Shown here: positions 12,506-46,600 of the stretch, one piece after another | Layout of the letters: every line of letters begins with the position of its first letter | How positions within the stretch are numbered: position 1 is the first letter of the stretch | DNA from: Bdellovibrionales bacterium | Lineage (GTDB): Bacteria; Bdellovibrionota; Bdellovibrionia; Bdellovibrionales; UBA1609 | DNA length: 64,000 nucleotides | Assembly: GCA_965205645.1 (NCBI GenBank) | Contig: OZ242172.1 | Coordinates: 576,122-640,121 of the forward strand | Reading direction: 5' to 3' | Position numbers and translations under genes: made by a program | The notes under the pieces: generated by a model | Seen by the model: only the letters and a program-made list of their open reading frames with translations | The model's database searches: none | What the model was told of the DNA's origin: nothing

Positions 12506-12574
12506 AGTCGTGACAGGTGTGCAGCGGAGTTGCGGCGAAGTCACTCCCCCTTGGGGGGCGGGGCTTAGGTCTGG
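12506..12574 (+). repeat. A-repeat copy (short-core variant)
   Basis: agtcgtgacaggtgtgcagcggagttgcggcgaagtcactcccccttggggggcggggcttaggtctgg. Shares the trailing ggct(a/t)aggtctgg with the copy at 9798. Confidence 0.8.
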
Positions 12575-15128: not shown

Positions 15129-15150
15129 AAAATCTGAAGATCTAATTCCC

Positions 15151-15440: not shown

Positions 15441-15497
15441 CAGCTCATTCAGTGAAAATCACTCAATCTTATGACATACATCAAAAGGGATGTGGAG

Positions 15498-16658
15498 ATG
15501 ACTCAAAAGAAAAATTCTGATGCATTAATAAAGCCAGTTTTTAGTCATTTAACATTTGTCATCACATTGTTTCTACAATCAACCTTTATTAGCTTGTTAT
15601 TAGCACACCCTACATTCGCCCGTTCATCCATGACAGACCGGCCGATCATTGCTGTGGCAACCAATATCGATAGAGAGAGAAAAGGTGTGAATAATGAAAA
15701 AAAATGTATGGGTCACAAAACTTGTGAGATGTGTGAAAAAATTTATGGTGCGGACAATGATAAAATAGCTTGTCAAAAAGAGAGCCTTAACAAAGTAAAT
15801 CATTTGAATAAAATATATGCTTTTTTAAAAGATGGAGATTATGAGGATTGGGATAAATTTTTCCTGGATGAAGATGAAGTGAATCTAAAATATCTAAAAG
15901 ATTACTTAAATATTGGCGATTCCGGTATAGAAAATCTTATTAAGAATCATTGGAGTGAAGATCAACTGATAAAATTCTTACAATTGATTATTGATAAAAT
16001 ACAGGTAGCGGAAATTTTATATAACTTAGCTGGAGGAAAATATCTTTTAAAAGAAATACTTCTAGCAATAAGAAATAAAACCGATCAATGTATTGGAAAT
16101 AACACTCTTAATGATTGTAATGATTCACCACACGGACATTATGGCAGAACTGGTTATGGTGTAGATTATAGTTTAGACGATGACACCGTTAATATTTGTA
16201 CTGAGGATAAAAACCCCAGTTGGTCATATACATTGGATCATCTTTTTCCATTTCCCAAAGAATTCATTTGGAAGAAAAGGAGTTTTACTTTTTTAGATGA
16301 TGATAACACGTCATTATATGACGCTTTATCTTGTTTCTCATTAATAGATAAAAGTAGCTTTTCAATTACACATTACAATGTATTTTCTTATGCTAGTATG
16401 AAAGAAAATGATTTTATTTTTAATATGGCTTATGATTTATTAAATGATACTTGTGAAGATTTTGATACTGATGAGAACGATTATAAACAACTCTGCAAAA
16501 AAGTTTCGTTTTGTTGGATTCATGAAGTAGATGAGAAACAAGGAGAGAGGAGTTTTAAATATCTTGTTGAGTTTGACTATGATGATGGTTTAGAAGGGGA
16601 TAGCGGTGGTTCTAACTATAATCAATGTGCACCAAGACATTTTGCCGAATTCTTTTAA
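15498..16658 (+). CDS. Chimeric paralog family member 5: PstS-derived leader/signal peptide fused to the Cys-rich family domain
   Basis: N-terminus MTQKKNSDAL...LLLAHPTFARSSMTDRPIIAVA is homologous at DNA and protein level to the PstS N-terminus MTQKKRSNLL...LLLATSTLAYSSMTDMPLVAAS. The rest carries CMGHKTCEMCEKIY, LKDYLNIGDSG, CKKVSFCW and NQCAPRHFAEFF. Confidence 0.75.
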   Translation: MTQKKNSDALIKPVFSHLTFVITLFLQSTFISLLLAHPTFARSSMTDRPIIAVATNIDRERKGVNNEKKCMGHKTCEMCEKIYGADNDKIACQKESLNKVNHLNKIYAFLKDGDYEDWDKFFLDEDEVNLKYLKDYLNIGDSGIENLIKNHWSEDQLIKFLQLIIDKIQVAEILYNLAGGKYLLKEILLAIRNKTDQCIGNNTLNDCNDSPHGHYGRTGYGVDYSLDDDTVNICTEDKNPSWSYTLDHLFPFPKEFIWKKRSFTFLDDDNTSLYDALSCFSLIDKSSFSITHYNVFSYASMKENDFIFNMAYDLLNDTCEDFDTDENDYKQLCKKVSFCWIHEVDEKQGERSFKYLVEFDYDDGLEGDSGGSNYNQCAPRHFAEFF

Positions 16659-16753: not shown

Positions 16754-17503
16754 TTATAATTTCTCTGTCTGGCAGATATTTAGATACTTAGTCACTACCT
16801 TCTTTAAGCCATGATAAAGCGATTCACAAATTAAAGCATGCCCAATAGAAACTTCACTCACACCTGGTACTCTTTGCAAAAAATAAGAAAGATTGTCTAA
16901 ATTTAAATCATGTCCGGCATTGATTTCTATTTTTAAATTTTTTAACTGCTCGGCTGCGCGAACATAAACAGCCGTGACTGTTTCCCTCTGAACAGTAGGC
17001 CATGCATTTGCATAAGCTTCTGTGTAAAGCTCTACACGATCCGATTGAATTTTCTGCAAAGCGCTTAATTCGGATTCTTCTAAATTAAAAGGATCTACAA
17101 ATAAAGAAGAACGAACATAGTGTTTTTTTAAAAATAAAATATTTTCAGTTAATTGGTGTATATTTTCCTTAAGCTTCCAACCGGCATTAGAAGTAAGCGC
17201 ATCAGGAGAATCCGGTACGAAAGTGCACTGGCTTGGCTTCACTGATTCAATCAGTTGCAAAAACGACCGATCCGGATATCCCTCTACATTTAACTCCACT
17301 TCCGGGTGATCCGCTAAAATACCTTTAATGTCTTTTACATCCTGGTATAAAATGTGCCGCCCATCCGGACGCGGATGCACCGTAATGCTTGTCACACCGA
17401 AACTAATTAAATCCCGCACCACTTGTCTCAGGTTAGGCAAGTTTTTCCCCCTCGCATTTCTGAGAGTGGCAATTTTATTGACATTAACACTTAGTCTAGC
17501 CAT
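16754..17503 (-). CDS. pdxJ: Pyridoxine 5'-phosphate synthase
   Basis: LSVNVNKIATLRNARG, HPRPDGRHI and the EINAGHDLN-type motif; the 249-aa length is typical for PdxJ. Confidence 0.9.
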   Translation of the reverse strand: MARLSVNVNKIATLRNARGKNLPNLRQVVRDLISFGVTSITVHPRPDGRHILYQDVKDIKGILADHPEVELNVEGYPDRSFLQLIESVKPSQCTFVPDSPDALTSNAGWKLKENIHQLTENILFLKKHYVRSSLFVDPFNLEESELSALQKIQSDRVELYTEAYANAWPTVQRETVTAVYVRAAEQLKNLKIEINAGHDLNLDNLSYFLQRVPGVSEVSIGHALICESLYHGLKKVVTKYLNICQTEKL

Positions 17504-17506
17504 AAA
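17478..17506 (+). promoter_or_regulatory. Candidate pstS promoter lying inside the 5' end of divergent pdxJ
   Basis: TTGACA, 17-nt spacer, CATAAA, about 65 nt upstream of the pstS ATG. Conserved in the duplicated copy at 15404-15432. Confidence 0.35.
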
Positions 17507-17572
17507 ATCCTTAGGCGGTTTATTCAGTAAAAATCATTCAAGCTTATAACATACATCAAAAGGGATGTGGAG

Positions 17573-18766
17573 ATGACTCAAAAGAAAAGATCTAATTTGC
17601 TGAAAAATTCGCTCTTCTTTTCTGCATTTTTACGTTTAACATTTGTTGCTGCATGGGTCATAAGCTCAATATTTACTTTGCTATTGGCAACATCCACGCT
17701 CGCTTATTCATCCATGACGGACATGCCACTTGTCGCTGCATCCGCTATCACGCAAATTAAAAAATTTGTTCGCGGAAAAAACCGCCGTCCATTACTCATT
17801 AATGGTGCAGGCGCTTCTTTCCCCTATATCCTGTACTCCAAATGGTTTTCAGAATATCAAAAGATAGATCCTTCTGTGAGAATTAATTATCGCTCCATCG
17901 GAAGCGGAGGAGGAATCCGCCAGTTCTTAATAGGTACTTTAGATTTTGGAGCTACCGATGTGCCAATTATAAAAAGTAAAATGCGCACACTCAAAACACC
18001 TCCACTACATATTCCTACCGCATTAGGCGCTGTGGTTATTAGCTATTATTTACCAACACTGAAAAATACAGATACCCTACAGCTGACACCTGTTATCCTA
18101 GCAGACATTTACCAAGGTAAAATTAAAAAATGGAATCATAAAAAAATAGTGGCCATTAACCCTAAGCTGTCTTTACCAGATCAGCAAATTGTGCCAGTGT
18201 ATCGCGCAGATGGTAGTGGTACAACAGCTGTGTTTACAGAATACCTGGCTCACTTTTCCACAGAATGGCTGCAACAAGCAGGAAAAGGTAAAGCTGTTAA
18301 CTGGCCAACCGGTATCGGAGGTAAAGGGAATGAAGGCGTGATGGGTCTTGTCCGCAAAATACCAGGCGCGATTGGTTACATTGCCTGGAGCTATGCCGCT
18401 AATATCCGATTCCCCACAGCAGCTGTCCAAAATGCATCCGGACATTTTGTAAAAGTTAGTCATGAAAATGCTAGTAACTCCGCTACACAAATTTGGAAAA
18501 AACACCACGACTTGTTTAAACCATTAGCTACTGCCAAAGGCGCTGACGCTTATCCTCTATCCTCTTATACCTACTTGCTTGTGAATCAAAAAATGCTTTC
18601 TCAAAAAGGACTCGCCATCGTAAAATTCCTTAAATGGGCTATGCAAAAAGGACAAACATTTTGCAAACCACTGCATTATATTCCACTTCCTCAACCTGTT
18701 ATACAAGCTACACTTAAACAAATAGATTCCATTTATATACCGAAAGATAATCCTATAAAAAAATGA
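17573..18766 (+). CDS. pstS: Phosphate ABC transporter substrate-binding protein
   Basis: Signal peptide, GSGGGI and YRADGSGTT motifs typical of PstS. Start moved to the ATG at 17573 (MTQKK). Confidence 0.9.
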   Translation: MTQKKRSNLLKNSLFFSAFLRLTFVAAWVISSIFTLLLATSTLAYSSMTDMPLVAASAITQIKKFVRGKNRRPLLINGAGASFPYILYSKWFSEYQKIDPSVRINYRSIGSGGGIRQFLIGTLDFGATDVPIIKSKMRTLKTPPLHIPTALGAVVISYYLPTLKNTDTLQLTPVILADIYQGKIKKWNHKKIVAINPKLSLPDQQIVPVYRADGSGTTAVFTEYLAHFSTEWLQQAGKGKAVNWPTGIGGKGNEGVMGLVRKIPGAIGYIAWSYAANIRFPTAAVQNASGHFVKVSHENASNSATQIWKKHHDLFKPLATAKGADAYPLSSYTYLLVNQKMLSQKGLAIVKFLKWAMQKGQTFCKPLHYIPLPQPVIQATLKQIDSIYIPKDNPIKK

Positions 18767-22728: not shown

Positions 22729-24146
22729 GTGACTTGTGCTTTTTTCACTTCATTCGCTAAATTTAATAATACGCTTTTATTGCGATGAATCATCTGATTT
22801 AAATGCTCCAAGCAACTATCCGCTGGAAACTGATGTAAAACATCCTTTATATAAGCAAATATCAAAAGCTCCCAAGCAGACTTCATGTCCAATCCACGAG
22901 TTTGTAAATAAAATATTTCGTTCGGATCAAAATTTCCCACCGCAGAACCATGCTGCGCCTGCACCTCGCTGCAATCAATCGCTAATTCCGGTTGGATGCA
23001 AGAGTGCGCACGATCACTTAATAATAAATTCTTGGCCGACTGACTGCAATCCACACCCTTTGCCCAAGATTCAACGTGTACCCGACCATGAAAAATACCC
23101 TTGGATTCATCATTCAATATCCCACGGCAAAATTGACGAGAATAACCCCCTGGCTTTAAATGATGCACATTAAACCGATGATCACTCTGATTCTTATTCT
23201 TTAAAATAGATAAACCTAATAATGTACTACGAGCTTTTTCCCCAACATGCACCACATCCGCCCTGTCCCTGGAAAACCGAGAACCTAAGCTAAAATGCAA
23301 ACGATCTATACTTGATTCTTTCTCCATCTCACTAATCGATTGATTAAAATAACAAGAAGAGCCACTGCCTTGCTCCACCCGAATCCATCGTAAAGCCGAC
23401 TGCTCAGAGTGATACACATTGGATACCGTATTCACTACTGCCTGTCCGTAATGAGAAATGTTCTCCACTAAAGTGAGCCGAGCTCCCTTACCCATAAAAA
23501 TAAAATTCCACCCCCCTAAGGGGGTTACTTTCGCCGCGGCTTCATTTACGTTATTGTCACTATCTTGCAAATCATGTTTACCCAGTGTCTCTGCCGACTC
23601 GGCGGCAAATACAGAATGAATGTGCAAAGCCTTAGAAGACTCATACCCATCCGGTATAAATAAAATATACCCACTTGGAAAAGCCCCAGCTAAATGAAAT
23701 AAACCATCTCCATTTCCAGCTACTTTTTTTTCTCCACGAAAACAATCCAATAACCAAGACCAACACGGAAAATCAGCATTCAACTGATCCCAAGTGCACC
23801 AACGCAAACCATCATCAATAGACGCTTCCACTAATTGATCATTATGAAAATGCAAACGATCTACATTTGGAAAATCAGCAATTAACTCTTCATTAATACT
23901 GTGCCGATCACTTACATTATTGCGCTCGGCATTCTGAAAAATGCTACGTAAAATATTCTGCACATAAGTAAACTGCCACCACTTGTCCGAACCCGACGGA
24001 AATCCCTTCTTTAAAAATTGAGCAAAATGCTTGTCCCGCATTTCACCCAATACCCGCCGCGAGTCCTCGGACGATAAGCCAAGCCATCCTTGCCGCTCCT
24101 GCTCAAATTCCTTTTTTAAAAATTCTATCCATCTGTCATCTGTCAT
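22725..24146 (-). CDS. sufD: Fe-S cluster assembly protein SufD (carries an in-frame A-repeat insertion)
   Basis: SufB/SufD C-terminal signature ...AQHGSAVGNFDPNEIFYLQTRGLDMKSAWELLIFAYI. Internal GKHDLQDSDNNVNEAAAKVTPLGG is encoded by the repeat at 23508-23583. Confidence 0.8.
   Translation of the reverse strand: MTDDRWIEFLKKEFEQERQGWLGLSSEDSRRVLGEMRDKHFAQFLKKGFPSGSDKWWQFTYVQNILRSIFQNAERNNVSDRHSINEELIADFPNVDRLHFHNDQLVEASIDDGLRWCTWDQLNADFPCWSWLLDCFRGEKKVAGNGDGLFHLAGAFPSGYILFIPDGYESSKALHIHSVFAAESAETLGKHDLQDSDNNVNEAAAKVTPLGGWNFIFMGKGARLTLVENISHYGQAVVNTVSNVYHSEQSALRWIRVEQGSGSSCYFNQSISEMEKESSIDRLHFSLGSRFSRDRADVVHVGEKARSTLLGLSILKNKNQSDHRFNVHHLKPGGYSRQFCRGILNDESKGIFHGRVHVESWAKGVDCSQSAKNLLLSDRAHSCIQPELAIDCSEVQAQHGSAVGNFDPNEIFYLQTRGLDMKSAWELLIFAYIKDVLHQFPADSCLEHLNQMIHRNKSVLLNLANEVKKAQVT
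23508..23583 (-). repeat. A-repeat copy (long-core form) inserted in frame in sufD
   Basis: ccacccccctaagggggttactttcgccgcggcttcatttacgttattgtcactatcttgcaaatcatgtttaccc. Confidence 0.9.
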
Positions 24147-25844: not shown

Positions 25845-27581
25845 TTAAGAACATTCTAATAAGCGATAAAAATCTGATTGGATTTTTTTTAGCTCTTTGT
25901 CAGATCGGCCGCCAAAACGAAAAGTAAACATGCTCTGTGTATTGGAAAGACGTGCCAGACCCCAAGCTTTCCCCGGAAAACATACCCGCACACCATCTAC
26001 TAAACATAACTGCGCTTCAGAATATTTCGCATAATGATCTTTGACTCGATTCAAAAGTTTGTGTGCCCGTGCTATGTCATTAACCGCTATACGTATCTCA
26101 TTCGTATGAACTCCAATGTTAGTAGGCAGTATTTTATCTAATAACTCTTCTACACGATACACACCACTCTCACATAAAATCCGTAACAAACGTAAAGTTG
26201 CATATACACCATCATCTAAAAAATAACCTTCATCACAAAAAAAGTAATGTCCGCTAAACTCACCACCGAATATCGCCCCTAATGCCAATGTTCGCCGACG
26301 AATTAAACTATGCCCCGACCCCCCAAGGGGGAGTGGTTTCGCCGCGGCTTCATTTACGTTATTGTCACGTCTTTGCTTCTCAAGGGGGAGTGGTTTCGCC
26401 GCGGCTTCATTTACGTTATTGTCACTATTTTGCAAATCATGTTTACCAAGTGCCAACGCAGATTTCTGCGTTTCTAAAAAATCAAAGAACCATGGGGCGC
26501 ATTTTACATCTGCGACAATAACACCGGCATCCTTATTCCGTTTCCATATATCAGAAATAAAAATCGCCATTAGCTCATCTCCATATAGCACCCTACCGGA
26601 TTCACTGATCACGACTAAACGATCCCCATCCCCATCCAAAGCCACTCCAAACTTTGCTCCACAGCTTCTTACCTTCTGACGTAAATCATTTAAATTTTCA
26701 TCTAAGGAAGGATCTGGATGATGATTCGGAAAACGTCCGTCCGGATCTGCATATAACCATTCAGCATTTAAACCTAACTCCTTAAAAACTGCTTGTGCCA
26801 CCGGCCCCGCTGCTCCATTTCCGCAATCCACTACAATGCTTCCCTGATCCTTCCACATTTTCCCTAACTGAGAAAATTTCTTTTTCATTAACTGAACATA
26901 AAAAGATATCACTGTATTATCTAAACTTTTGACTGACTTCTTCTCACGATTGATATTTGTTAAATGTCCACTGTCCGATACACAATGCTTGTCAGATAAA
27001 GATGTGGATTTTGTCTTTGCTAACAAAGAATCATCCGTAGATAATTGAAGGATAATATCTTTTAACTCTTGCAACTTCTCATCACATAAAGTTTCTTCAT
27101 ATACAGAAAATTTAAAGCCGTTAAAGTCAGCTGGGTTATGACTTGCCGTCACCATCACAGAAGCTGCGGTATCAGGAAAAAAATGGGAAGCAACAAAACA
27201 AACCGGAGTGGATACTAAACCTAAAAATTGTATCGGTGCTTGACCGGCAGTGAGTCCCTCTATTAAAGCATTTGTTACGTCTGGACTGCTTAAGCGACTG
27301 TCATGTCCCACTGCTACAAAGCTTAAAGACATAGGTGTGTCTAACAGTTTATCTTTTTTACTACTATGAAATGCCTTTTTGTCTTTTGTGATACTACGTT
27401 CACTGTTATTCCTAATGTTTGTGCGATATGAGATAAACTTAGCAAAAGCTATCCCCAAGTATCGCACGAAATCTAAATCAAAATCTTTTCCATATATTCC
27501 ACGAATATCATTTTTTCTAAAAATATCCGGATTCCATTTCATGTGCTTCAACCTAATATCCATCTCATACTCATTATGCAC
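25845..27581 (-). CDS. Phosphomannomutase/phosphoglucomutase (carries 1.5 in-frame A-repeat copies)
   Basis: Active-site TASHNPADFNGFKF, Mg site ALDGDGDRLVV, GHSLIRR sugar loop. The insertion ALGKHDLQNSDNNVNEAAAKPLPLEKQRRDNNVNEAAAKPLPLGG lies directly before GHS. Confidence 0.85.
   Translation of the reverse strand: MHNEYEMDIRLKHMKWNPDIFRKNDIRGIYGKDFDLDFVRYLGIAFAKFISYRTNIRNNSERSITKDKKAFHSSKKDKLLDTPMSLSFVAVGHDSRLSSPDVTNALIEGLTAGQAPIQFLGLVSTPVCFVASHFFPDTAASVMVTASHNPADFNGFKFSVYEETLCDEKLQELKDIILQLSTDDSLLAKTKSTSLSDKHCVSDSGHLTNINREKKSVKSLDNTVISFYVQLMKKKFSQLGKMWKDQGSIVVDCGNGAAGPVAQAVFKELGLNAEWLYADPDGRFPNHHPDPSLDENLNDLRQKVRSCGAKFGVALDGDGDRLVVISESGRVLYGDELMAIFISDIWKRNKDAGVIVADVKCAPWFFDFLETQKSALALGKHDLQNSDNNVNEAAAKPLPLEKQRRDNNVNEAAAKPLPLGGSGHSLIRRRTLALGAIFGGEFSGHYFFCDEGYFLDDGVYATLRLLRILCESGVYRVEELLDKILPTNIGVHTNEIRIAVNDIARAHKLLNRVKDHYAKYSEAQLCLVDGVRVCFPGKAWGLARLSNTQSMFTFRFGGRSDKELKKIQSDFYRLLECS
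26319..26447 (-). repeat. A-repeat, one truncated plus one full long-core copy, in frame in the phosphomannomutase gene
   Basis: ccccccaagggggagtggtttcgccgcggcttcatttacgttattgtcac, a 12-nt joint, then caagggggagtggtttcgccgcggcttcatttacgttattgtcactattttgcaaatcatgtttacc. Confidence 0.9.
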
Positions 27582-27602: not shown

Positions 27603-27708
27603 CTCCCAAAGAGAGTGACTTTCGCCGTCCGCGAGTTGCGACCCCCCAAGGGGGAGTGGTTTCGCCGCGATTCCTTCGTACTCATGTCACTATCTTGTAA
27701 ATGATATG
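27603..27708 (-). repeat. Two adjacent A-repeat copies (one partial), intergenic
   Basis: ctcccaaagagagtgactttcgccgtccgcgagttgcg then accccccaagggggagtggtttcgccgcgattccttcgtactcatgtcactatcttgtaaatgatatg. Confidence 0.8.
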
Positions 27709-27710
27709 GG

Positions 27711-27828
27711 TTTCTCCACTTAAAAATCTTATTCAAAACGAGTTTGGCTTTGAAGCAGAGCGACTGAAAGCTTGCTCTGCGGCAAAACGCATGTTTGAGC
27801 TTTTGAATAAGATTTTTAAGTGGAGAAA
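27711..27828. repeat. B-repeat hairpin element (118 bp)
   Basis: tttctccacttaaaaatcttattcaaaa-...core...-ttttgaataagatttttaagtggagaaa. Same core as 12369, different but self-complementary arms. Confidence 0.9.
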
Positions 27829-27843
27829 TGACTACCCCTGGAC

Positions 27844-29777: not shown

Positions 29778-30026
29778 TGTATAAACTCGTTATGATTCCA
29801 TTCAGTTTTATTTCATTAAATCAAAGTACGTATTGAACACTTTTATTCTTAATATAATACGCTGCGCTTATTTGCCATGTTTTAAAAATAAAGAAACTAA
29901 AAACATTATGACAAAGTCCTCTTATAGTCTTGTTGATCCGCCCTGTCAATAAGTCCTGAAATCGCATTATCTATTAAGAAATCAAATGGATACTCCGAAG
30001 TGGAAAATAAGTGGAGAATTAAAAAA

Positions 30027-30977
30027 ATGAAATATTATCTGTGGTTGTGCTTAGTGCTACTAAGCATGGGTATTTTTTGTATCCAATGTTCTATGATTTC
30101 TTCCCCTCCAGATATACCGACTGTCACCAGGGATGCTCCGGAAAATGGATTGGACAATGAGTCTTTGTTCCCAAAGTGTGAGAGAGGAGAATGCTGTTCT
30201 GAAAATAAGGAGTGCGAAAGAATCTGTGATAATATTTTTAACAGTTTTGTACCAGCTAAGGATCGCTGTAGATCTTTGCCGCAACCATTAGTATTTGATA
30301 TTGGAGATCTGGTCAGAGGGTTGGAACACCCGATTGTTCAGGATTTAAGGCGGGTGGATGTGAAGGATGAATTTCGTCGTTTATTGGCCTTAGATTATAT
30401 GGTGTTGGTACGTATTGTAGAACGTTATAGAATAGATAAAGCACGAGAACTACTTTTATGGTTTGCTGAAGAAGATGCAGTAGCTAAGGAATTACTTAAA
30501 TTAAGGAGAGAAGATCGTAATCATTTAATGTATGCATTACTGGCTAGCGCAGGAGATCGTACTTTACCTGGATCTGCGGAAAATGGCTTAGCCAGAAACG
30601 TATCTTTTGATAAAACATTTTTTGCATTGCTTATAGATTTTCTTAATAATGATATGTTGCAAATTGTTCATGACATGCTTCGAGGGGAAATGTGTGCTCC
30701 AGACTTTGGAGAAGGTAAAAAAGCTGAGCTTTGTATATTGCGTATTTATTGTCGTGAAAGAGTTGGGTTAGATAATCAATATGTACATAATGAAGATTTG
30801 CGCACTGATATTTCTTTTCGTCTGGAAGATAAACAGTTTTTTGATTATATTCGACGAGAAGTTTACAATTCTTCTTTAGATGATTTTAATTTATCACAAC
30901 CTTTGATGAATGATATGACTTGCCAAATTGTTTGTAATGATACTTACCGTGGATGTGAAGGATGGAATTTACAATAA
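30027..30977 (+). CDS. Cys-rich secreted protein, paralog family member 6
   Basis: Signal peptide MKYYLWLCLVLLSMGIFC. CERGECCSENKECERICDNIF, LLWFAEEDAV and C-terminal CILRIYCRE motifs. Confidence 0.65.
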   Translation: MKYYLWLCLVLLSMGIFCIQCSMISSPPDIPTVTRDAPENGLDNESLFPKCERGECCSENKECERICDNIFNSFVPAKDRCRSLPQPLVFDIGDLVRGLEHPIVQDLRRVDVKDEFRRLLALDYMVLVRIVERYRIDKARELLLWFAEEDAVAKELLKLRREDRNHLMYALLASAGDRTLPGSAENGLARNVSFDKTFFALLIDFLNNDMLQIVHDMLRGEMCAPDFGEGKKAELCILRIYCRERVGLDNQYVHNEDLRTDISFRLEDKQFFDYIRREVYNSSLDDFNLSQPLMNDMTCQIVCNDTYRGCEGWNLQ

Positions 30978-32101
30978 AAAAACTACTCGCTACGATTCGT
31001 TCTTTTAGAGTGGGTGATTTTCAATGTGCATGTGCGCGCGTTATTGTCACATGTGTGCAAGGGATCATTACATACTTTCGCAGGTATTCACGCGCTATTG
31101 GTTTATTAGTGGCTTTAGTGGCATTGCTTGTGCACTGTACTTCGCCGGAACAACGGGCGACTCGCCGGATTGGTTCAACTCGTTTGGATACAAGAATTCC
31201 TGTGCGAAATGTATATAATGAGATATACGGTAGTTACCGAAAGCAGGATTATGATGGACCTTCGTGCAAGGATGAGGATGAAGATCGTAGCCAGTCTAGA
31301 AATGACAGAGAGGAAAACTGCGAATATATCTGTCGTGAGATGTATAATGAACACAGTCGGGAATGCGGAAGTGCTCCAGCAGAATTAGTGCATGCACTAT
31401 ATGATTTTTTTAAAAAGATGCGTCGTATTCGGCAGCCCAGTTCTTTATTCCGACAGGTAGATATTTCTAATTTTGGTGTGATGATTGATTTGGATGTGGA
31501 GCCAATGTTGGAGTTAATCTCTGATTGGAGTGTAAGAGAAACTAAATTATTTTTAATATGGACGGCAGAAACCATAGCGGTATCTGCGGCCATCCGACAT
31601 CATGATAGAGATAATCTGATCTTGGAACATGCTTTTGAAAAATTGGGTAAAGAACACGATTATGCCAGAGGACTGGAAGAGAGAGTTTTAGTGGGTTTTA
31701 GTGAAGATCTACATGGATTTACAGAAACTTTCTTATCTCTTGCTCAACACCAAAGAAATGAAGCAGCTTTTGTCATTGCTCATCGGGCGATAGAACAGGT
31801 GTGTGAGAATGAATCCTGTATCGTGCGTGCCTATTGCACAAGAGAAAGTTATGATCGGTTATTGAATGCTCCTCGATGTCCTTACCAGACTTCTGGCCGG
31901 TTAGCTGGTTCTAGGTCTAATCATTGTTATGTACATGGGGCGGAAGTCTGGAGTTATTGGGAAATATTAAACCGAGATAGAAAAATTGAGGACAAAGAAT
32001 TTCCATTTGACAGTGAATATAAAATCAATCAAGCTAAATGTGATAGTGAAGAAATATGTGGAGAAGATATAGACAGTTCTTGTAAAAGGAACTTGGATTA
32101 A
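30962..32101 (+). CDS. Cys-rich secreted protein, paralog family member 7 (start uncertain)
   Basis: Hydrophobic segment AIGLLVALVALLVHC, acidic linker, ENCEYICREMY, FLIWTAETIAV and CIVRAYCTRE motifs. The first ~60 codons overlap a degenerate A-like repeat and the end of member 6. Confidence 0.6.
   Translation: MEFTIKKLLATIRSFRVGDFQCACARVIVTCVQGIITYFRRYSRAIGLLVALVALLVHCTSPEQRATRRIGSTRLDTRIPVRNVYNEIYGSYRKQDYDGPSCKDEDEDRSQSRNDREENCEYICREMYNEHSRECGSAPAELVHALYDFFKKMRRIRQPSSLFRQVDISNFGVMIDLDVEPMLELISDWSVRETKLFLIWTAETIAVSAAIRHHDRDNLILEHAFEKLGKEHDYARGLEERVLVGFSEDLHGFTETFLSLAQHQRNEAAFVIAHRAIEQVCENESCIVRAYCTRESYDRLLNAPRCPYQTSGRLAGSRSNHCYVHGAEVWSYWEILNRDRKIEDKEFPFDSEYKINQAKCDSEEICGEDIDSSCKRNLD
31038..31170 (+). 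repeat. Degenerate A-like repeat inside the annotated 5' end of family member 7
   Basis: cgttattgtcacatgtgtgcaagggatca... and ...tacttcgccggaacaacgggcgactcgccgg resemble the gtgacatgcgtgcaagg and ccggcgactcgccg parts of the 14361 variant. Confidence 0.4.
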
Positions 32102-32137
32102 AAATAAGAAAATAGTCTTTTATATTAGGAGGATACT

Positions 32138-33148
32138 ATGAAATATGCGGCTATCAAATATTTTACAATATTTACTATTGCTAGTTCATTGGCGGCACTA
32201 ATGATTTTTGGTTGTTCTACGGAAACCGGCCGTAATGTTGGGACCACTGATAATGGTGGAACAAATAGTGGTAGTCGTCGTAGTCGTAGTACAACCAGTA
32301 CTTTAGATTGTTCTATGCCATCGGGTGGCAGCACATGTGAAGGGGATGAGGATTGTGAAGAACTATGTGAGGATAATGATCATTTGAATCTATCAGGCAG
32401 TGCGAGAAAGGAATGTTTTGATTGGCCAACAGCCTCTGTAGAAAAATTAGATGAGATATTTAAGGAGATAAAGGATCCAGAGGAAGATAAGTTAAATGAC
32501 TTAACAAACGACGACATTAATTTACTGTGTGCGGCGATAGAGATGGAAGAAGATTTTTGGCTTGACGAGATTAAGGGTTATACTCCTTCAGATTCCAAAT
32601 ATATTTTAAAATGGATCATTAATAATGAGCAAGTGACTTTTCTTTTAGATAGAGAAATAAAAGAAGAGGATAGGACAAACCATTTGAAATATTTGCTTGT
32701 AGCACTTGCTGACTCTCATGATATTCTAGATGATATGAAGATATTGGAAGGTTTAGGAGATAGAGTGGATACAGATGATGATGAGAATGTGATAGAATAT
32801 GCAGAGAGCGCAGGTAATGAAGACTTTATTAAAATGGTACATGAGCTAATTGTTGAGGAAGGTATATGTGACGTAACGGACAACCAGCCTACATTTACTG
32901 ATGCCTCTGCTAATTATCAGAAGTCCGCTTGTATGTTAGGGGTTTACTGTCACATAATAGATGATGAAGGTGTTAGAAAGAGCATTGCAGAGATTATTAA
33001 TAATGGGGATATTAAAGGTCTTATTGAATCAGACAATACCGGTGGTCTTGATTTAGGTGAGGAAGATGCAGAGGAATGGACTACTGTAGCTTGCGCAAAA
33101 CTAGTATCTGACTGGGCAGATACTGCTAATTTAGATTTAGGTTTATAA
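32138..33148 (+). CDS. Cys-rich acidic secreted lipoprotein, paralog family member 8
   Basis: Lipobox IFG|C. CEGDEDCEELCEDND, ILKWIINNEQV and CMLGVYCHI motifs. aggagg SD upstream. Confidence 0.65.
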   Translation: MKYAAIKYFTIFTIASSLAALMIFGCSTETGRNVGTTDNGGTNSGSRRSRSTTSTLDCSMPSGGSTCEGDEDCEELCEDNDHLNLSGSARKECFDWPTASVEKLDEIFKEIKDPEEDKLNDLTNDDINLLCAAIEMEEDFWLDEIKGYTPSDSKYILKWIINNEQVTFLLDREIKEEDRTNHLKYLLVALADSHDILDDMKILEGLGDRVDTDDDENVIEYAESAGNEDFIKMVHELIVEEGICDVTDNQPTFTDASANYQKSACMLGVYCHIIDDEGVRKSIAEIINNGDIKGLIESDNTGGLDLGEEDAEEWTTVACAKLVSDWADTANLDLGL

Positions 33149-33190: not shown

Positions 33191-33224
33191 AACAGCCGGT
33201 AGTAAATACTACCGGTTGTTTTTT
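33191..33224 (+). terminator. Rho-independent terminator after family member 8
   Basis: Stem ccggtagt / actaccgg with loop aaat, followed by ttgtttttt. Confidence 0.7.
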
Positions 33225-33237
33225 AGAGGAGGATATA

Positions 33238-33840
33238 ATGAGAGATACTATTCAGTGCAGAGTATTTTACTATCTAAAAACCATGGTTTTTTTGTTTGCT
33301 TTATTTCCAATGATTAGTTTCGCATCACCTTTAGAGAATGTATGGGATACATTGTTTCCAACTACTAGAGCAATCTCAAGAAGTGAAGTTCAGAACCTTT
33401 TACAAAATTCTTCTGAAAAAAGTATAATGCATATTCAAACCTATAAAGGATGCGAACCAGCCTTTGTAACTCTTGGAACAAAAGTATGGTTGAGCATGAC
33501 GGCACAAAAGACGGAAAAAAAGACCTGTTCTGTTGCTGTTCATCCAGGCAATAAAATATCCGTTAGTTTTAGCAATAAAACTGTTCTTGTGGCACCAATG
33601 AGCAGTAGAGCGGTCGTTGGTGATATAAAATATAACCTAGCCATTGGTGAGATAGATGGACACAATGTTTTAATGGTTGCATATGATGAAAATGGTACAA
33701 TCTCTTATGCAATATATACTGTTTATGATTTAAATGACAATGTAGTAGATTCTTATCTACAAGATGAATGGGATACATGGAAAGATTCTATTAGATATTG
33801 TGTTATTGCACCTGTATATCAACAATCAATGTGTGATTAG
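33238..33840 (+). CDS. Small secreted hypothetical protein, tandem duplicate copy 1
   Basis: Signal peptide MVFLFALFPMISFA|SP, Cys-containing ~180-aa mature part. Near-identical to the next gene. Confidence 0.6.
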   Translation: MRDTIQCRVFYYLKTMVFLFALFPMISFASPLENVWDTLFPTTRAISRSEVQNLLQNSSEKSIMHIQTYKGCEPAFVTLGTKVWLSMTAQKTEKKTCSVAVHPGNKISVSFSNKTVLVAPMSSRAVVGDIKYNLAIGEIDGHNVLMVAYDENGTISYAIYTVYDLNDNVVDSYLQDEWDTWKDSIRYCVIAPVYQQSMCD

Positions 33841-33882: not shown

Positions 33883-34497
33883 ATGAAATATATCATTAAA
33901 TGCAGGTGTTTTTATTATCTAAAAACCATGGTTTTTTTGTTTGCTTTATTCCCTATCATTAGTTCCGCATCACCTTTAGAGAATTTATGGGATACATTGT
34001 TCCCAACTACTGGAGCAATCTCAAGAAGTGAAGTTCAGAACCTTTTACAAAATTCTTCTGAAAAAAGTATAATGCATATTCGCACCTATAAAGGATGCGA
34101 AGCAGTCCCCTCTGTAATTCTTGTAACTCTTGGAACAAGAGTATGGTTGAGCATGATGGCACAAAAGACGGAAAAAGAGACCTGTTCTGTTACTGTTCAC
34201 TCAGGTAATAAAGTATCCGTTAGTTTTAGCAATAAAACTGTTCTTGTGGCACCAATGAGCATGAAACTGGTCGTTGGTGATATAAAAGAAAACATAGCCA
34301 TTGGTGAGATAGATGAACACAATGTTTTAATGGTTGCATATGATGAAAATGGTACAATCTCTTATGCAATATATACTGTTTATGATTTAAATGACAATGT
34401 AGTATATTCTGCTCTACAAGATGAATGGGATACATGGAAAGATTCTATTAGATATTGTGTTATTACACCTGTATATCAACAATCAATGTGTGATTAG
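33883..34497 (+). CDS. Small secreted hypothetical protein, tandem duplicate copy 2
   Basis: Same sequence as copy 1 apart from scattered substitutions and a 4-aa insertion (AVPSVILV region). The 3' flank tagtattccaataaatagtttcaattccattca is also duplicated. Confidence 0.6.
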   Translation: MKYIIKCRCFYYLKTMVFLFALFPIISSASPLENLWDTLFPTTGAISRSEVQNLLQNSSEKSIMHIRTYKGCEAVPSVILVTLGTRVWLSMMAQKTEKETCSVTVHSGNKVSVSFSNKTVLVAPMSMKLVVGDIKENIAIGEIDEHNVLMVAYDENGTISYAIYTVYDLNDNVVYSALQDEWDTWKDSIRYCVITPVYQQSMCD

Positions 34498-37721: not shown

Positions 37722-37826
37722 CGCCCCCCAAGGGGGGATGACTTCGCCGCGATTCCTCTGCACGCCTGTTACAACTTTGCCGATTATGTTTACAAATAAA
37801 AGCCTGTGGTAACTTGCTGCCGCCAC
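37722..37826 (-). repeat. A-repeat copy plus adjacent variant tail, intergenic
   Basis: cgccccccaaggggggatgacttcgccgcgattcctctgcacgcctgttacaactttgccgattatgtttacaaataaaagcctgtggtaacttgctgccgccac. Confidence 0.75.
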
Positions 37827-40322: not shown

Positions 40323-41612
40323 TTGAAAAAAATGTTTAACGTAAAATTATTTCACACTTGTATAAATATTAGACGATATATTCGTAAGTACTTAAAATAT
40401 ATAGAATTTAATAAAATTTTATCAGAAAATACCTGTCGAGCTTACCATATAGATTTAAGACAGTTGTTAATAAATTATCATCCGGTGCTTGGTAATTTAT
40501 TTTCTTTAAAAGGTTGGAAACTATACACTGATTTGTCTCAGGATGAGTCTGTTTTTGGCGTAGAGAGTGACTTATTTTCAGACATTGTTCATCAGCAGGT
40601 TGGTGGCGGGTTGCTACGGGCACTTACTTGTAAACATGATGTGCAAGATAGTGACAATAACGTAAATGCAGCCGCGGCGAAAGTAACCCCCTCTGGGGGT
40701 GGCAGGTCACCACGGGCACTTACTTGTAAACATGATGTGCAAGATAGTGACAATAACGTAAATGCAGCCGCGGCGAAAGTAACCCCCTCTGGGGGTATGG
40801 ATCCATTAGAGGAGAAGTGGGTAGGGGAGATGATGAAATACAGTTTTAAGAAGTGGGCTTCATTATCTCCGGCATCTCGTAATCGAAAGTATGCTTGTTT
40901 GAAAGCTTTTTTATCTTGGTTATTTGTTCATGGAGGAGTGCAGGTGGATATGCAGAGTTGGATTAAGCTACCACGTGTTCCTCAACGTATCCCTTATTAC
41001 TTATCTGTAGATGAGGCTCTTTACTTAATAAAGACTGTGCAAAAACAGGCAAACGCAAAAGAAAGAGATCGGGATTTATTATTAATTCTTTTGCTATATG
41101 GTGGCGGACTGAGGGTGAGTGAGGCTTGTGGTATGCAGTGGAATCAAGTGGATATAGCGAATGGTTGTTTACGTGTATTAGGTAAGGGTGGAAAAGAAAG
41201 GTTAGTGACAGTGCCAAAAGTGGTGTTAAAGGAGTTAGGTCGCTGTCAAAGTCTTCAGCATGACAAACATAATTTGCAAAGCAATAAAAAGGGAGCAGCG
41301 GAATCGCGGCGAAACGTTCCTCGCGACCCGCGAGTTTTTCCTGGGTTAGCGGTTAGGCAGGCTTATGAGATCGTTCGACGTTGGGGTCAGCGTGCGGGTT
41401 TAAGTAAACCGTTAAGTCCTCATGTTTTGCGACACAGTTTTGCGACACATTTATTAAGCAGTGGATCTGATTTACGTACTTTACAGGAGTTATTGGGGCA
41501 TCGTTCTTTGAGTGCTACTCAAAAGTATACGCACTTACAGATGTCACATTTGAATCGTTTGTTAGAATCTTATCATCCTTTACGTAATCGTCAGCGCGAT
41601 AAATCACGTTGA
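40323..41612 (+). CDS. Tyrosine site-specific recombinase XerC/XerD family (three in-frame A-repeat insertions)
   Basis: LRVSEA (Arg I), HVLRHSFATHLL and LLGHRSLSATQKYTH (catalytic Tyr). Two 32-codon tandem insertions LTCKHDVQDSDNNVNAAAAKVTPSGG in the N-terminal domain and a variant copy in the catalytic domain. Confidence 0.85.
   Translation: MKKMFNVKLFHTCINIRRYIRKYLKYIEFNKILSENTCRAYHIDLRQLLINYHPVLGNLFSLKGWKLYTDLSQDESVFGVESDLFSDIVHQQVGGGLLRALTCKHDVQDSDNNVNAAAAKVTPSGGGRSPRALTCKHDVQDSDNNVNAAAAKVTPSGGMDPLEEKWVGEMMKYSFKKWASLSPASRNRKYACLKAFLSWLFVHGGVQVDMQSWIKLPRVPQRIPYYLSVDEALYLIKTVQKQANAKERDRDLLLILLLYGGGLRVSEACGMQWNQVDIANGCLRVLGKGGKERLVTVPKVVLKELGRCQSLQHDKHNLQSNKKGAAESRRNVPRDPRVFPGLAVRQAYEIVRRWGQRAGLSKPLSPHVLRHSFATHLLSSGSDLRTLQELLGHRSLSATQKYTHLQMSHLNRLLESYHPLRNRQRDKSR
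40617..40796 (+). repeat. Two tandem long-core A-repeat copies (96-bp period) in frame in xerC/D
   Basis: cgggcacttacttgtaaacatgatgtgcaagatagtgacaataacgtaaatgcagccgcggcgaaagtaaccccctctgggggt occurs at 40617 and again at 40713. Confidence 0.9.
41259..41334 (+). repeat. Variant A-repeat copy in frame in the xerC/D catalytic domain
   Basis: catgacaaacataatttgcaaagcaataaaaagggagcagcggaatcgcggcgaaacgttcctcgcgacccgcgag. The tail and cgcggcgaa core are recognisable; the head resembles the partial copy at 27603. Confidence 0.6.
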
Positions 41613-41645: not shown

Positions 41646-41686
41646 ATTTAAATATTCTGCTCAAAAGCTCAGACATGCGTTTTGCC
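41646..41686 (+). repeat. Half B-repeat, left of the A copy
   Basis: gatttaaatattctgctcaaaagctcagacatgcgttttgcc. Confidence 0.7.
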
Positions 41687-41752
41687 CCCCAAGGGGGAGT
41701 GACTTCGCCGCGGCTGCATTTACGTTATTGTCACAGCTTTGCATATTTTGTG
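41685..41752 (-). repeat. A-repeat copy (long-core form), intergenic, flanked by two half B-repeats
   Basis: ccccccaagggggagtgacttcgccgcggctgcatttacgttattgtcacagctttgcatattttgtg. Confidence 0.85.
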
Positions 41753-42044: not shown

Positions 42045-43568
42045 ATGGGTAAAAGGTTAGATGAATTAAAGCAATGTTTTCGTTTAGATAATATTCGTCG
42101 CATAAAAGGTTCAGCAGCTATTTTAATGGCTTTAGTGGTGTCTGGTTCTGTCGCAACAGTGATTTTTGTGAGTCAGAACACTTTAACACAATTTATGTCT
42201 GCTCGGAGTAAAAGAACGGTTAATTGGCAGATGGATCTAGCGGTGCAGTATGGACTGCATTTAGGTGGATATTTAGTAGCTAATAATGTCATTTTATGTC
42301 GTGAAGGTGGATGGAGAGCTTTAGGTGATACTGGACCCTTATGTAAATGGACAGATGCTAAAGAAAAAGGGATTCCTTCACCGAGTGATTATGATCTGAC
42401 AGATAAGACAGCTGTTGTGGTTGGAGAGCAAAGTAGAAAACAGCTTCGTTATAATGGAACAAAAGATATTGAAGGTCAGGAATACTCTTATCAGTTATTT
42501 TTTGATTTAGTGAATTGGAAAGATGCCAGGATGAGTAGCTTGATGGGGGAAGTGCCAGATACGCTTTGTCGAAATACGAAATTACAAGTAGTGGAAGGTC
42601 TCTGTGATCAAGCGGATCAAGAGCATTGTAAAAAACCTGGAGGAGCAGATATTAAAGGCACGCATTGTGAATACATTGCCAATATGGATCAGGATATGAC
42701 GATTGTATTATTAAAAGTGGTTATATTGGATGAAGATGAAAATCCTGTGGGTAGTCCAAAATATGCTGGTATTAGAAGACCTTTGGCTGCTATCACATTG
42801 GAGGTGGCAACGCCGCCAAAGTGTGAGCTATCCTGTGCGTCTGGTTTCGGTGGTCTCTTCCCTGAATGCCGAAGTTCGCCAACGGCTGAATCTGCTGGTA
42901 TAAAAACTGGTGTTTCTTCTATGGAATTGCGAGTGCACAATCAAGGTCCTGGGGCTATTTATGCACTTTCATTGTTACGGATGGATAAGCCGACTAGTTC
43001 TACTGCTTCTTGTGAAGATAAAGCAGGTCATTCAGATTGCACATATATGGTGACTCCGGATTTGCTAAAATTTAAAACAATAGAAGTATTTTTTCCAGGT
43101 GATGAATTTACTTTTACAGAACCTGTAGACTGTTCAAAAAAGACAATTGTAAAAGAAATAGTTAAGCGTCAGATATGTCAAGGTGGACGATGGGAGAACA
43201 CAGATTGTAAAGTAGGAAGTCTTACTGTAGAGAGTGTATCTATTAATCCACATATTCAGCCGTTTTCAGAGATTGTTTTTGATTTATTTTCTATGCAATC
43301 TATGAAGAATTCATGGGGAGCATGTATGAAAGAGGGATTTGCAACCTCAACTATAGATTTGAAGGATTGGATTGTTGCAAAAGATAATAAAGACTGTGGA
43401 CCTGGAGGTATAGAAGGTAAAACTTGTGGAGAAGGTAAAGGTAAATGTCGTTATCCTGATATTGAACCAAAGCGAATTTTTGCTCCTGGTTCTGGATCAG
43501 GTCATGGCTCTTTTCATATACAGCAAGAGATATTAAAAGTAATTAATAAATTTGTTATGCCTCATTAA
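42045..43568 (+). CDS. Cys-rich exported protein with PilX-like N-terminal hydrophobic segment
   Basis: N-terminus RRIKGSAAILMALVVSGSVATVIFVS resembles PilX/minor-pseudopilin N-termini ([KR]G-small-x-[ILV]...). More than 20 Cys. No other domain recognised. Confidence 0.45.
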   Translation: MGKRLDELKQCFRLDNIRRIKGSAAILMALVVSGSVATVIFVSQNTLTQFMSARSKRTVNWQMDLAVQYGLHLGGYLVANNVILCREGGWRALGDTGPLCKWTDAKEKGIPSPSDYDLTDKTAVVVGEQSRKQLRYNGTKDIEGQEYSYQLFFDLVNWKDARMSSLMGEVPDTLCRNTKLQVVEGLCDQADQEHCKKPGGADIKGTHCEYIANMDQDMTIVLLKVVILDEDENPVGSPKYAGIRRPLAAITLEVATPPKCELSCASGFGGLFPECRSSPTAESAGIKTGVSSMELRVHNQGPGAIYALSLLRMDKPTSSTASCEDKAGHSDCTYMVTPDLLKFKTIEVFFPGDEFTFTEPVDCSKKTIVKEIVKRQICQGGRWENTDCKVGSLTVESVSINPHIQPFSEIVFDLFSMQSMKNSWGACMKEGFATSTIDLKDWIVAKDNKDCGPGGIEGKTCGEGKGKCRYPDIEPKRIFAPGSGSGHGSFHIQQEILKVINKFVMPH

Positions 43569-43625: not shown

Positions 43626-46600
43626 GTGAAAATTAAAAATAAAATTCTTTGGAATCAAAAAGGATCTCTGATTGGGAGCATAATGGCTCTTTCCATTATG
43701 GGGTTGAGCACTGTTGGTTTACTACATTATACGACAGGTTTTAGGAGTAATGTGGTAGAGCAAGTACAGCAGCGGGATAATGAAGTATTAATCAGCCGAC
43801 AGGCAATCAATCGCTTAAAAGCTTTGTTAGTTGAAAAAACAACTAAAGAAGATGGCGGTATCGCTCTACAAAATACTTATGGAATATGTTCTTTATTAGA
43901 AAGTCCAGGTATTTCAGTAGGTGCAGAAGCTATATTTCTAAATTTTAAATATGTTAATACAAAGGGTATTAATTGGAATAAATCCAGGTGGCAGGTAATT
44001 TTTGCCGCACCCGATTGGGAGTTTGCTGATGCTGCTTCATGCCAACGAATAGATGATAGTTTTACAGCAAGTGTTTTTGCCCGCTGCTTAGAATATAAAG
44101 GGGATAGTAGTGGTGCTTGGCAAACTTTCGTGATTGCAAAAATACGTCCAGAATATTTTCCAGGTGGCAAGATTATTGATATTAAAGATAAGTCAATAGA
44201 TCCAAAAAGTGTTATGTTTATTTTAACAGCTAAAACAGGATCTTTTTATGTGGGCACACCTTCTGCAGAAAATTCTCAGGAAGAATCTGAAGAGGTTCAG
44301 CAAGATATCGTTTATTTCCATCAAACGTCTGATATGTTATGGGCGAATAGTGTTGGTGAATGTCACGTTCAAACTAGGGATGATAAGGAATGGACAACTG
44401 TTCATTTTTCTGGATCTGGTACGGGATCTAATTCCAATAATAGAGTGATCAATGATTCTGCATTTCATGATACACATAATTGTGAAGCACTTGAGATACC
44501 AGATGATAGTATTAATGATGGTGTCGTACAGGCGGGACAATTGGCGGGACAATCAAATACTTTTAATTTAAGTTCCATTATTGGGTTAAATGTTAAATTA
44601 AGTTGTACTGCAAAAACATTTCGCTGTAAAAAATCTGGTGGAATTCCGGCTTTTGAGAATAAGGATATCGATCCATTTCGATTCACTTTTAAGGTTCGCA
44701 ATAGACATCCATATCCAATTACTTTAACAGCAATAAATATTACCTTAAAAAAGAAAAATTCAGGTGAGGTAGATGGTACTGCTAATCGTCGGTTAGACGG
44801 TGTATCTATGAATTTATATGATAGTGCGGATAGTGTTACTCCTATTATGGCTGCTAATATAGATGATGAAGAAAATAAATATGAGATCAATGGAGAAAAA
44901 GAGTTTGCTGTAGAAGCTGATGGTGTGCAAATGGATAATCATTGTCGGTCTATCTGCCAAAAAAACTCTGATTTTTATCCTGTCATTGACGTAGATACTG
45001 ATTATGATACAGATGGTTCTTGTTTTAGAAAAGATTTCAGTGATGATGAGAGTAATAAAGTGCATTGTACTGTGTGTTATATGAAGTCTTGTCAACGTTC
45101 TGGTTTAGGCACTTTTGGTCCGTTGCAACCAAGAGCTTTTGACAAAGAACGTTCCTCGGTACAATTAACAGGTGTGGACATAAAACAGCAACAGTTCCAA
45201 GGTTTACCGGATGAAGCCTTGGATTCTCAATTACCAGAATGTCATATTACTCAATCATATAAAGGGAGTGATTTACCAACAAAGGCTTTGGAAACAGTAA
45301 GTAATGGTAGTGATGATTGTTTAGCTGTTAGTGTATCTAGTGTGAATGATTTTAAGGATCTGCATTCACGTCCGTATCACCGATCAAGTTGTAAGACTAC
45401 AAAACCTGTCTTGTGTTTTATTAACGGTCATTATGTGCCGGCCGTGGAAATTGTAGGTTCTGATCCTGATCAGCTAAAAATGATTATTAAAAAAACTACT
45501 TTTGCTAATGCACAACAGGCATGTTTTGAGATGGGTCGGGAAATAGGAAGTATGTCTAGCTTAACTACTATGTTTCATAGCGCGTATGAAGCTGAAGATT
45601 CTCTAAAAGAGCAATTAGCAAAAATCCAAAATGAATTAGTTTTTGCATCAGATAAAGAAAAATTTGATTTTATTAACAATGCGACAAGGGGATTATTTTT
45701 AGCTCCTGTTAAGAGAACGTACAGTGTTATTCCTAATGGGCTAGTTCATTATATGGTGAACAAAGTAGTTAAGGATTACAGTTCTATGTGGACAGCCATA
45801 GAAATGGACGGTGGTGGTTCACCAGTGGCATCTGTTCCTTGGGCAGGGGTGGCATCCAGAGCTTTAAAAAAAGATCAGCCTTGGGCAGTATTTTTTAATA
45901 AGGATGGAGCTCGCCCTGTGCTGTTCAAAGAAACAAGCCAGTTACAAGATTCCTCAAAACATTTTGCTTTACATTATAATTTAAGATGGAAGGGTGCTGC
46001 TCCACAGTCTTCAACTACAGACGCACGTTTTGTATGCCTTAATCCAACTAACCAAAAATATGTTGTCACGTCGGATACAGGTACATTGGAAGAAGGTGCA
46101 AGTGTTTGTGCGAGAGAGGGTAACTTGTTTATTCCTCCGTTTAGTGGTGATGACTGGGCACAAGCCATGCTAAGTTTAAACCCTAACGATGAAATGTATC
46201 CTTTTCCTGATCCAAAATTAAGTGATGCCACACAAAAAGCTTTTGTATATTCTCATTCATTAGAAGATCCAGTTGCTTGGTTAGCTTTAGAAAGCACCTT
46301 ATCAAAACAGGCAGGTGATTCAGTACCTAAAGCTTCTGAATTAAATTTTTATGTGAGTCGCTGGTCAAATGGAGCAAATGTGTTAAGCAAATCTATTTTA
46401 AAAACACGTAGTACATTTACAAAAACAGGAATCACTTTGGATGGAGTGCCGAGAGGTACCTGTGATGATGCAGGTGATACACTTTTGTCTCTTTGTGTGA
46501 GTCGACAAGCTGGTGGTTTTTCACCAGTTGCCATTGTACCAGAATCTAGTACTAGTAGCTGTCCATCTGGTAGCCTGAAAGCAAGTGATGCAAAGGTAGC

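Follow-up and report, generated by a model that had tools for sequence, protein, structure and literature searches.

Anciently diverged, cysteine-rich predicted lipoproteins encoded side by side in small-genome Bdellovibrionota

The contig OZ242172.1 of the Bdellovibrionales bacterium assembly GCA_965205645.1 codes for eight paralogous cysteine-rich proteins within the 64,000-nucleotide (nt) stretch that we analyzed (positions 576,122 to 640,121 of the forward strand; hereafter the window, in whose own numbering its features are given). Five of their genes, m1 to m5, form a first cluster and the remaining three, m6, m7 and m8, a second one at 30027-33148. We propose that m6, m7 and m8 specify three anciently diverged paralogs of a clade-restricted lipoprotein family that act together, each as a separate subunit of a hetero-oligomeric assembly in the envelope or on the cell surface, a reading to which we give a probability of roughly one half. 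The precursors would carry a signal peptide extending to a lipobox cysteine, at which lipidation and cleavage would leave the mature protein hanging from the membrane. From there a disordered tether, often acidic or rich in Ser/Thr, would bear an all-α domain of about 250 residues, probably locked by four to six intramolecular disulfides with a core of C57, C63, C67, C81, C223, C236, C242 and C299 (m6 numbering). Such an assembly could plausibly mediate contact with a prey or host cell.

An earlier note on this DNA had placed m6 to m8 in the same Cys-rich family as m1 to m5, and profile-profile comparison bears this out: hhalign aligns the two clusters over 194 columns with a probability of 98.7% and an E-value of 1.8e-16. 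A hidden Markov model (HMM) of the eight window members matches exactly those eight among the open reading frames (ORFs) of at least 120 amino acids (aa) in the window, with m6, m7 and m8 scoring 276-329 bits. A word-indexed protein search retrieved few relatives even with a 104-sequence profile, and the size of the family was instead taken from HMMER run index-free on 1.84 billion representatives; with a threshold of E<=1e-3 it recovered 776 clusters, and with one of E<=1e-10, 652. One could still ask whether the members resemble each other by chance or composition, as low-complexity, Cys-rich ORFs, or whether the ORFs are genes at all, especially as pairwise identity between paralogs is only about 20%. 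However, the profile E-value, the 652 library representatives recovered at the stricter threshold, the conservation of orthologs under purifying selection and the confident structure predictions make this next to impossible. By these comparisons the family is real, sizeable and unnamed. None of the eight proteins has a match in Pfam, even at E<=1, or in NCBIfam. Scanned against Pfam, 104 family members and 10 long multi-domain members revealed no recurrent family and, one weak leucine-rich repeat excepted, no informative fused domain. Exact sequence look-ups of m6 and m8 returned no record, and literature searches found neither a description of the family nor a paper citing the sponge project accession.

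The gene m6 (30027-30977, forward strand, within an ORF open from 30000) specifies a 316-aa lipoprotein precursor. It most likely starts at the ATG at 30027, because an 80%-identical homolog (P0003) and all orthologs in alignment A4 begin there with the signal peptide kept; a GGAG lies at 30013-30016, 10 nt upstream. The genome collection's own call for m6 (P0002) is, at 294 aa, 22 residues shorter and probably starts at an internal methionine, losing the signal peptide. The latter ends in FCIQC, with Cys21 specified by the codon at 30087-30089, and is followed by 12 more cysteines. The second gene, m7 (30962-32101, forward strand), codes for a 379-aa paralog and overlaps the stop codon of m6. 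Its product has a long N-terminal region with a hydrophobic stretch leading to LVHC, Cys59 (codon 31136-31138) and 12 further cysteines. The 16-nt overlap reported in the earlier note, at 30962-30977, is real: the m7 ATG, the overlap and the N-terminal MEFTIKKLL are all kept in the closest relative (L017), whose m7 shares 74% aa identity over the full length, N-terminus included. Downstream in-frame GTG codons, with which the overlap would vanish, were rejected as m7 starts since they are not kept in that relative. The third gene, m8 (32138-33148, forward strand), specifies a 336-aa paralog with an isoelectric point (pI) of 4.1 and has a strong ribosome-binding site of its own, AGGAGGA at 32127-32133, 4 nt before the ATG. 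It displays a canonical lipobox, IFGC, with Cys26 at codon 32213-32215, then a linker rich in Ser/Thr/Arg and 10 more cysteines. All nine motifs that had been quoted for the three proteins are present in the translations in the order claimed. Downstream of m8 there is an intrinsic-terminator-like hairpin with a T-run on the forward strand (33192-33226; AACAGCCGGTAGT-AAAT-ACTACCGGTTGTT), which upholds the clean terminator noted earlier. Its stem of 12-13 base pairs (bp) at 33192-33220 has a folding free energy of -22.8 kcal/mol (z -5.98), and none of 200 shuffled sequences folds as stably; a simple consensus scan misses it, part of the T-run being paired into the stem. The m6 and m7 frames overlap, a strong ribosome-binding site precedes m8 and a terminator comes after it; by these signs the three genes form a single transcription unit.

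Signal peptides of bacterial lipoproteins run from a positively charged n-region through a hydrophobic h-region to a lipobox, [LVI][ASTVI][GAS]C, with an invariant cysteine at +1, and the N-termini of the family fit this pattern. The lipobox column holds a cysteine in 135 of the 173 aligned members (99% in alignment A6), the logo reads [LF][LF][FL][FVIL][SGQA]C[SGT], the mean hydropathy over the 12 residues preceding the cysteine is 2.2, and the -1 residue is S, G or A in 102 of those 135 members. The proteins had earlier been labeled "secreted"; they are better described as lipoproteins, that is, as membrane-anchored. The number of cysteines after that of the lipobox, 12, 12 and 10 in the translations of m6, m7 and m8, is even in 101 of 104 members and mostly 8, 10 or 12, which points to extracytoplasmic, disulfide-bonded lipoproteins. 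Most members are acidic, with a pI of 4.1-6. Besides the lipobox cysteine and the core cysteines given above, the positions conserved among 104-173 members are L143, W145, N207, H215 and Y241. We hence work with a family definition that comprises the lipobox Cys, a disordered linker, the signature C-x5-C-x3-C-x13-C ... L-x-W ... N-x7-[HY] ... C-x12-C-x5-C ... C, an all-α domain of about 250 aa and an even cysteine count; m6, m7 and m8 possess all of the core cysteines as well as W145 and N207.

AlphaFold2 predicts an all-α structure for m6, with a predicted local distance difference test (pLDDT) score of 81.8 and a predicted template modeling (pTM) score of 0.79, and the model of m8 (pLDDT 76.5, pTM 0.71) is alike: both begin with a signal helix, joined by a disordered linker (30-40 residues) to about 16 helices in the same order. 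Foldseek comparison with the PDB gave best E-values of 1.1 for m6 and 0.54 for m8, all with TM<0.3 and to generic helical repeats; the m6 model had no match in BFVD with E<0.1, TM again being <0.3; and a profile search of PDB sequences found at best a designed helical protein (E 0.038). Going by the models, the fold is one without a solved relative in the PDB. No polar catalytic residue set is conserved family-wide, the invariant positions being cysteines, hydrophobic residues, W145 and N207, and because of this the domain is, most likely, a rigid scaffold for binding or structure rather than an enzyme. We also weighed a His-based enzyme, phospholipase-A2-like or other, but discarded it, as H215 is not invariant and the residue adjoining it varies.

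The history of the paralogs was traced in a set of 14 genomes by reciprocal best hits, gene maps and a bootstrapped neighbor-joining tree, which agree with each other. In 14 of 14 genomes m6 and m7 each form a one-to-one orthogroup (bootstrap 96 and 100, respectively), and m7 always lies directly downstream of m6, at a spacing of -35 to +84 nt in the 13 species genomes and L017, including several overlaps of 1-4 nt. The m8 clade has a bootstrap of 76, with reciprocal-best orthologs in 10 of 13 genomes, directly after m6-m7 in nine of them, and shows lineage-specific expansions to four copies in L001 and three to four in L003. Since m6 and m7 are one-to-one orthogroups in 14 genomes and m8 is a clade, the phylogeny dates the duplications to before the whole clade. 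Of the relatives, one genome (L009) holds the whole set in a single contiguous array, ProC-DivIVA-m1-m2-m3-x-m4-m6-m7-m8-m8', and another (L003) a shorter one, DivIVA-m1-m6-m7-m8; cluster 1 of the window sits in the same context, FHA-FHA-TadC-ProC-DivIVA. The earlier note had taken the distance of about 14 kb between the clusters (13.4 kb from the end of m5 at 16658 to the start of m6 at 30027) as a sign of repeated duplication and dispersal. This interpretation is not supported by the comparison. The contiguous sets of L009 and L003 make a single ancestral array, divided later by a rearrangement, the best reading of the two clusters; in agreement with this, the 5' end of m5 copies the junction of pdxJ and pstS where the break lies. 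Just two events in the window are recent, the duplication behind m4/m5 and that of the pair downstream of m8, and in a self-blastn of the window no members apart from m4/m5 resembled each other in DNA.

Relative to the sponge-derived L017, the ratio of nonsynonymous to synonymous substitution rates (dN/dS) is 0.165 for m6, 0.20 for m7 and 0.31 for m8, as against 0.07-0.125 for five housekeeping neighbors. By these estimates, m6 to m8 are under purifying selection, if of a somewhat relaxed kind, which is usual among envelope proteins. Some metagenomic members (P0041, P0029, P0032 and P0037) contain two to five copies of the family domain in a single polypeptide. Because the paralogs are kept one-to-one, m6 and m7 are always adjacent and often overlap, and some relatives fuse two to five domains, we infer that the paralogs work together as distinct subunits of a hetero-oligomeric assembly at the envelope or cell surface.

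Searched with m6-specific motifs, 185,579 species genomes yielded 13 loci, all from entries named "MAG: Bdellovibrionales bacterium" (MAG, metagenome-assembled genome). The complete chromosomes among these 13 genomes measure 1.4-2.3 Mb, and the window's own contig 1.56 Mb. Among the genomes recovered in this way, the family appears restricted to a small-genome clade of Bdellovibrionota, a restriction read from the m6 motifs rather than from the taxonomy of the 776 clusters. The closest relative, L017, is a contig from a sponge metagenome with 80% identity in m6 and 74% in m7, and its gene order is identical to that of the window: PdxA-SurA, m6-m7-m8, one copy of the downstream gene, NhaA. Two of the 13 loci come from MAGs named IP30a and IP30b, a naming that corresponds to MAGs from the skeleton of the coral Isopora palifera (PMC11070183; PMC9868349). 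Small, low-GC Bdellovibrionota MAGs, which may or may not be of the m6-bearing clade, are also known from a glass sponge (PMC9944714). Small-genome Bdellovibrionota recur in sponge and coral metagenomes, where they may prey on other symbionts or may themselves live as symbionts of the animal (PMC9944714; PMC9868349).

Several observations weigh against the proposed assembly of distinct lipoprotein subunits. The -1 lipobox residues of m6 (Q, in IQC) and m7 (H, in VHC) are non-canonical, though kept within their own orthogroups, so the lipidation of these two is less certain than that of m8. Searches of Pfam, NCBIfam and the PDB brought up no homolog of known function for the family. The surroundings of the array vary from genome to genome, and isolated copies are found elsewhere, near mnmE-yidC-dnaA in L019 and L020; hence, not all members need partners. 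The case for hetero-oligomerization consists of gene order, overlap and domain fusions; inner-membrane and outer-membrane or surface locations are not distinguishable from sequence; and a host association of the window's own organism is suggested by its relatives. An alternative that draws on the single copies outside arrays is that the members work individually, each as a binding protein or enzyme of the periplasm or surface whose target would be, for example, a lipid, metal, glycan or peptidoglycan fragment, with the array recording ancient subfunctionalization without physical association. Each orthogroup indeed has its own invariant charged residues (the m6 ortholog alignment has 55 invariant columns, the motif YVHSEDLR among them), and H215 and N207 are kept in 73% and 91% of members, respectively. 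Yet H215 is replaced by Y or T in m3 to m5, the polar residues do not add up to a set conserved throughout the family, and no likeness to any enzyme or binding-protein fold was detected. With the invariant m6-m7 adjacency, the frequent overlap and the domain fusions all favoring joint action, we regard solitary function as unlikely, if still worth serious consideration.

The tandem arrangement and size of the family also bring to mind a variable repertoire of surface lipoproteins, serving antigenic or phase variation or rapid changes of host or prey range, like the families of Borrelia or Mycoplasma. In keeping with this, the proteins evolve faster than housekeeping ones (26-51% identity across the clade for m6 to m8, compared with 60-70% for DivIVA, TadC and ProS), m8 is expanded in L001 and L003, m5 is a recent duplicate of m4, and repeats resembling miniature inverted-repeat transposable elements (MITEs) and Rpn-like genes occur in or near arrays. 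However, recent duplication or conversion, weak orthology and diversifying selection, by which such repertoires are recognized, are seen only in part, in the m8 expansions elsewhere and in m4/m5. Otherwise m6 and m7 are strictly one-to-one in all 14 genomes with congruent trees, their dN/dS values and that of m8 (0.17-0.31) lie well below 1, and self-blastn gave no sign of silent cassettes or of conversion tracts, although switches by homopolymers or invertible promoters were not specifically looked for. We therefore hold a variable repertoire to be improbable. Less probable still is an envelope lattice cross-linked by intermolecular disulfides that stiffens the cell, as OmcA/OmcB do in chlamydial elementary bodies. 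Such a lattice would suit Cys-rich lipoproteins of reduced-genome, possibly host-associated lineages in which several members are co-expressed from one operon, but the even cysteine count in nearly all members fits full intramolecular pairing with no spare thiol, and the Pfam searches, chlamydial families included, gave no match.

The assembly of distinct subunits can be taken further, in a form that we offer tentatively and consider rather unlikely as a whole: the eight conserved paralogs may be subunits of an as yet unseen, disulfide-stabilized envelope lipoprotein assembly with a fold lacking a solved relative, forming an attachment or recognition apparatus for host or prey in the reduced-genome Bdellovibrionota of sponge and coral samples. 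A genome of about 1.5 Mb that keeps at least eight copies of one lipoprotein family, one-to-one across the clade, makes a heavy investment in its envelope, and m1 to m8 are prime candidates for molecules touching the partner cell. The confident predicted fold, with no PDB relative and four to six likely disulfides, makes the family a target for structural biology, and at least 776 representative clusters without a name constitute an annotation gap.

The members of cluster 1 are all encoded on the forward strand. The smallest, m1 (7411-8169, 252 aa), directly follows a divIVA-like gene and has orthologs by DivIVA in L003, L009 and L011; we take it to be the ancestral head of the array. Next come m2 (9994-11091), m3 (11122-12294) and m4 (12771-13913), each with an ortholog in the same order in L009. 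The last, m5 (15471-16658), is a duplicate of m4 specific to the window's lineage (m4/m5 clade bootstrap 98) and is devoid of the lipobox cysteine. The pdxJ-pstS junction and the PstS signal peptide recur, as a copy, in its upstream region and first ~17 codons (15149-15521 versus 16794-16846 and 17280-17596 at 81-94% identity; 15320-15521 versus 17394-17596 at 81%). As the 5' end was copied from there, m5 has swapped its lipoprotein signal for a PstS-type one, and we interpret the junction copy as marking the rearrangement by which the array was divided. MITE-like palindromes of about 120-190 bp that share 73-84% identity are dispersed through the window, at 9680-9863, 12363-12560, 27642-27829 and 57157-57275, with partial copies at 37722-37788 and 41646-41711; two of them sit in intergenic gaps of cluster 1. 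Between m4 and m5 there is an ORF of 228 aa (14442-15128) with homologs near the lipoprotein arrays of relatives, the coordinates recorded with it being 17625-18089 in L003, 12821-15298 in L005, 4994-5956 in L013, 3556-4080 in L015 and 516-9891 in L019. One homolog has a weak match to the Rpn C-terminal helix-turn-helix domain; in L019, several PDDEXK_2 genes, which were not compared with the 228-aa ORF, adjoin a family member. This ORF and its kin may be transposase-like genes of the Rpn/PD-(D/E)XK kind with a part in the rearrangements.

Downstream of the terminator, as the earlier note had observed, lies a tandemly duplicated gene pair on the forward strand (33238-33840 and 33883-34497), whose products of about 200 aa are not family members. 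The copies share 84% aa and 91.6% DNA identity; their N-terminal hydrophobic stretch reads like a type I signal peptide, and no known domain was found in Pfam or NCBIfam. The gene is single-copy in the sponge relative L017, and the dN/dS of 0.85 between the window copies suggests relaxed or diversifying selection. Elsewhere in the window, a repeat of about 70 bp recurs in copies 85-96% identical at 23512-23581, 26320-26451, 40630-40796, 41685-41746 and 57077-57144. It lies between genes and also in frame inside mutually unrelated housekeeping ORFs, namely SufD-like, phosphoglucomutase-like (two copies) and XerC/D-like recombinase (two copies) ones, where it adds the peptide ..KHDLQ.SDNNVN.AAAK.., and it is reminiscent of the palindromic elements that enter coding sequences in Rickettsia. 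Two adjacent Cys-rich ORFs, 42045-43568 (507 aa) and 43626-46961 (1111 aa), have no Pfam match and are kept as a pair in L014 at 29% identity. A further clade-specific pair, of envelope proteins or adhesins, could be encoded here. An Eco57I-type N6 DNA methylase gene (51493-52611, reverse strand), with a homolog in L004, adjoins a 204-aa ORF without a Pfam match (50882-51496), and the two may form a restriction-modification pair. A type II secretion GspC-like gene (57440-58414; T2SSC and PDZ domains) is followed by a 922-aa ORF (58438-61206) that reads by eye like a secretin whose signal is of the lipoprotein type (...ISSC) and whose C-terminus forms a long acidic tail, and the product of 62345-63646 reads by eye like a Cu/Zn superoxide dismutase with a C-terminal tail of KAVLPKAVKS repeats.

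Among known systems, the Hcp proteins of Helicobacter are Sel1-like proteins whose helices are stapled by regularly placed disulfides and which are thought to be binding scaffolds, not enzymes. By analogy, the m6 family too would comprise paralogous, exported all-α proteins of a host-associated bacterium. However, the eight window proteins (E<=1) and the 104 members (E<=0.01) have no match to Sel1 (PF08238), and Foldseek likewise gave none; moreover, Hcp is a stack of 36-aa repeats, each a pair of helices bridged by a disulfide, whereas the m6 family has a single non-repetitive domain of about 250 aa with a lipobox. At a smaller scale, the C-x5-C-x3-C-x13-C of m6 falls in its model on two short consecutive helices (H61-70 and H75-82), recalling CHCH (CX3C/CX9C) hairpins. 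With one CX3C, no twin motif and a much larger bacterial extracytoplasmic domain, the likeness is one of principle only. In chlamydial elementary bodies, a Cys-rich complex of OmcA and OmcB is cross-linked by disulfides and stiffens the envelope. With the lipoprotein OmcA and with OmcB the m6 family shares Cys-rich envelope proteins, a common operon and a reduced genome; unlike them, it is predicted to be all-α, its even cysteine numbers suggest intramolecular disulfides, and neither the window members nor the 104 relatives match a Pfam family. The Mlp, Erp and Vsp proteins of Borrelia and the Vlp proteins of Mycoplasma are similar in being lineage-specific lipoprotein arrays with tethered globular domains in small host-associated genomes. 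In contrast to these, the m6 family is ancient, one-to-one, under purifying selection, chromosomal and Cys-rich, and no relation in sequence or fold was detected. Lineage-specific paralogous lipoprotein families as such are hence familiar; what is new here is this family, its predicted fold and its conserved eight-member organization.

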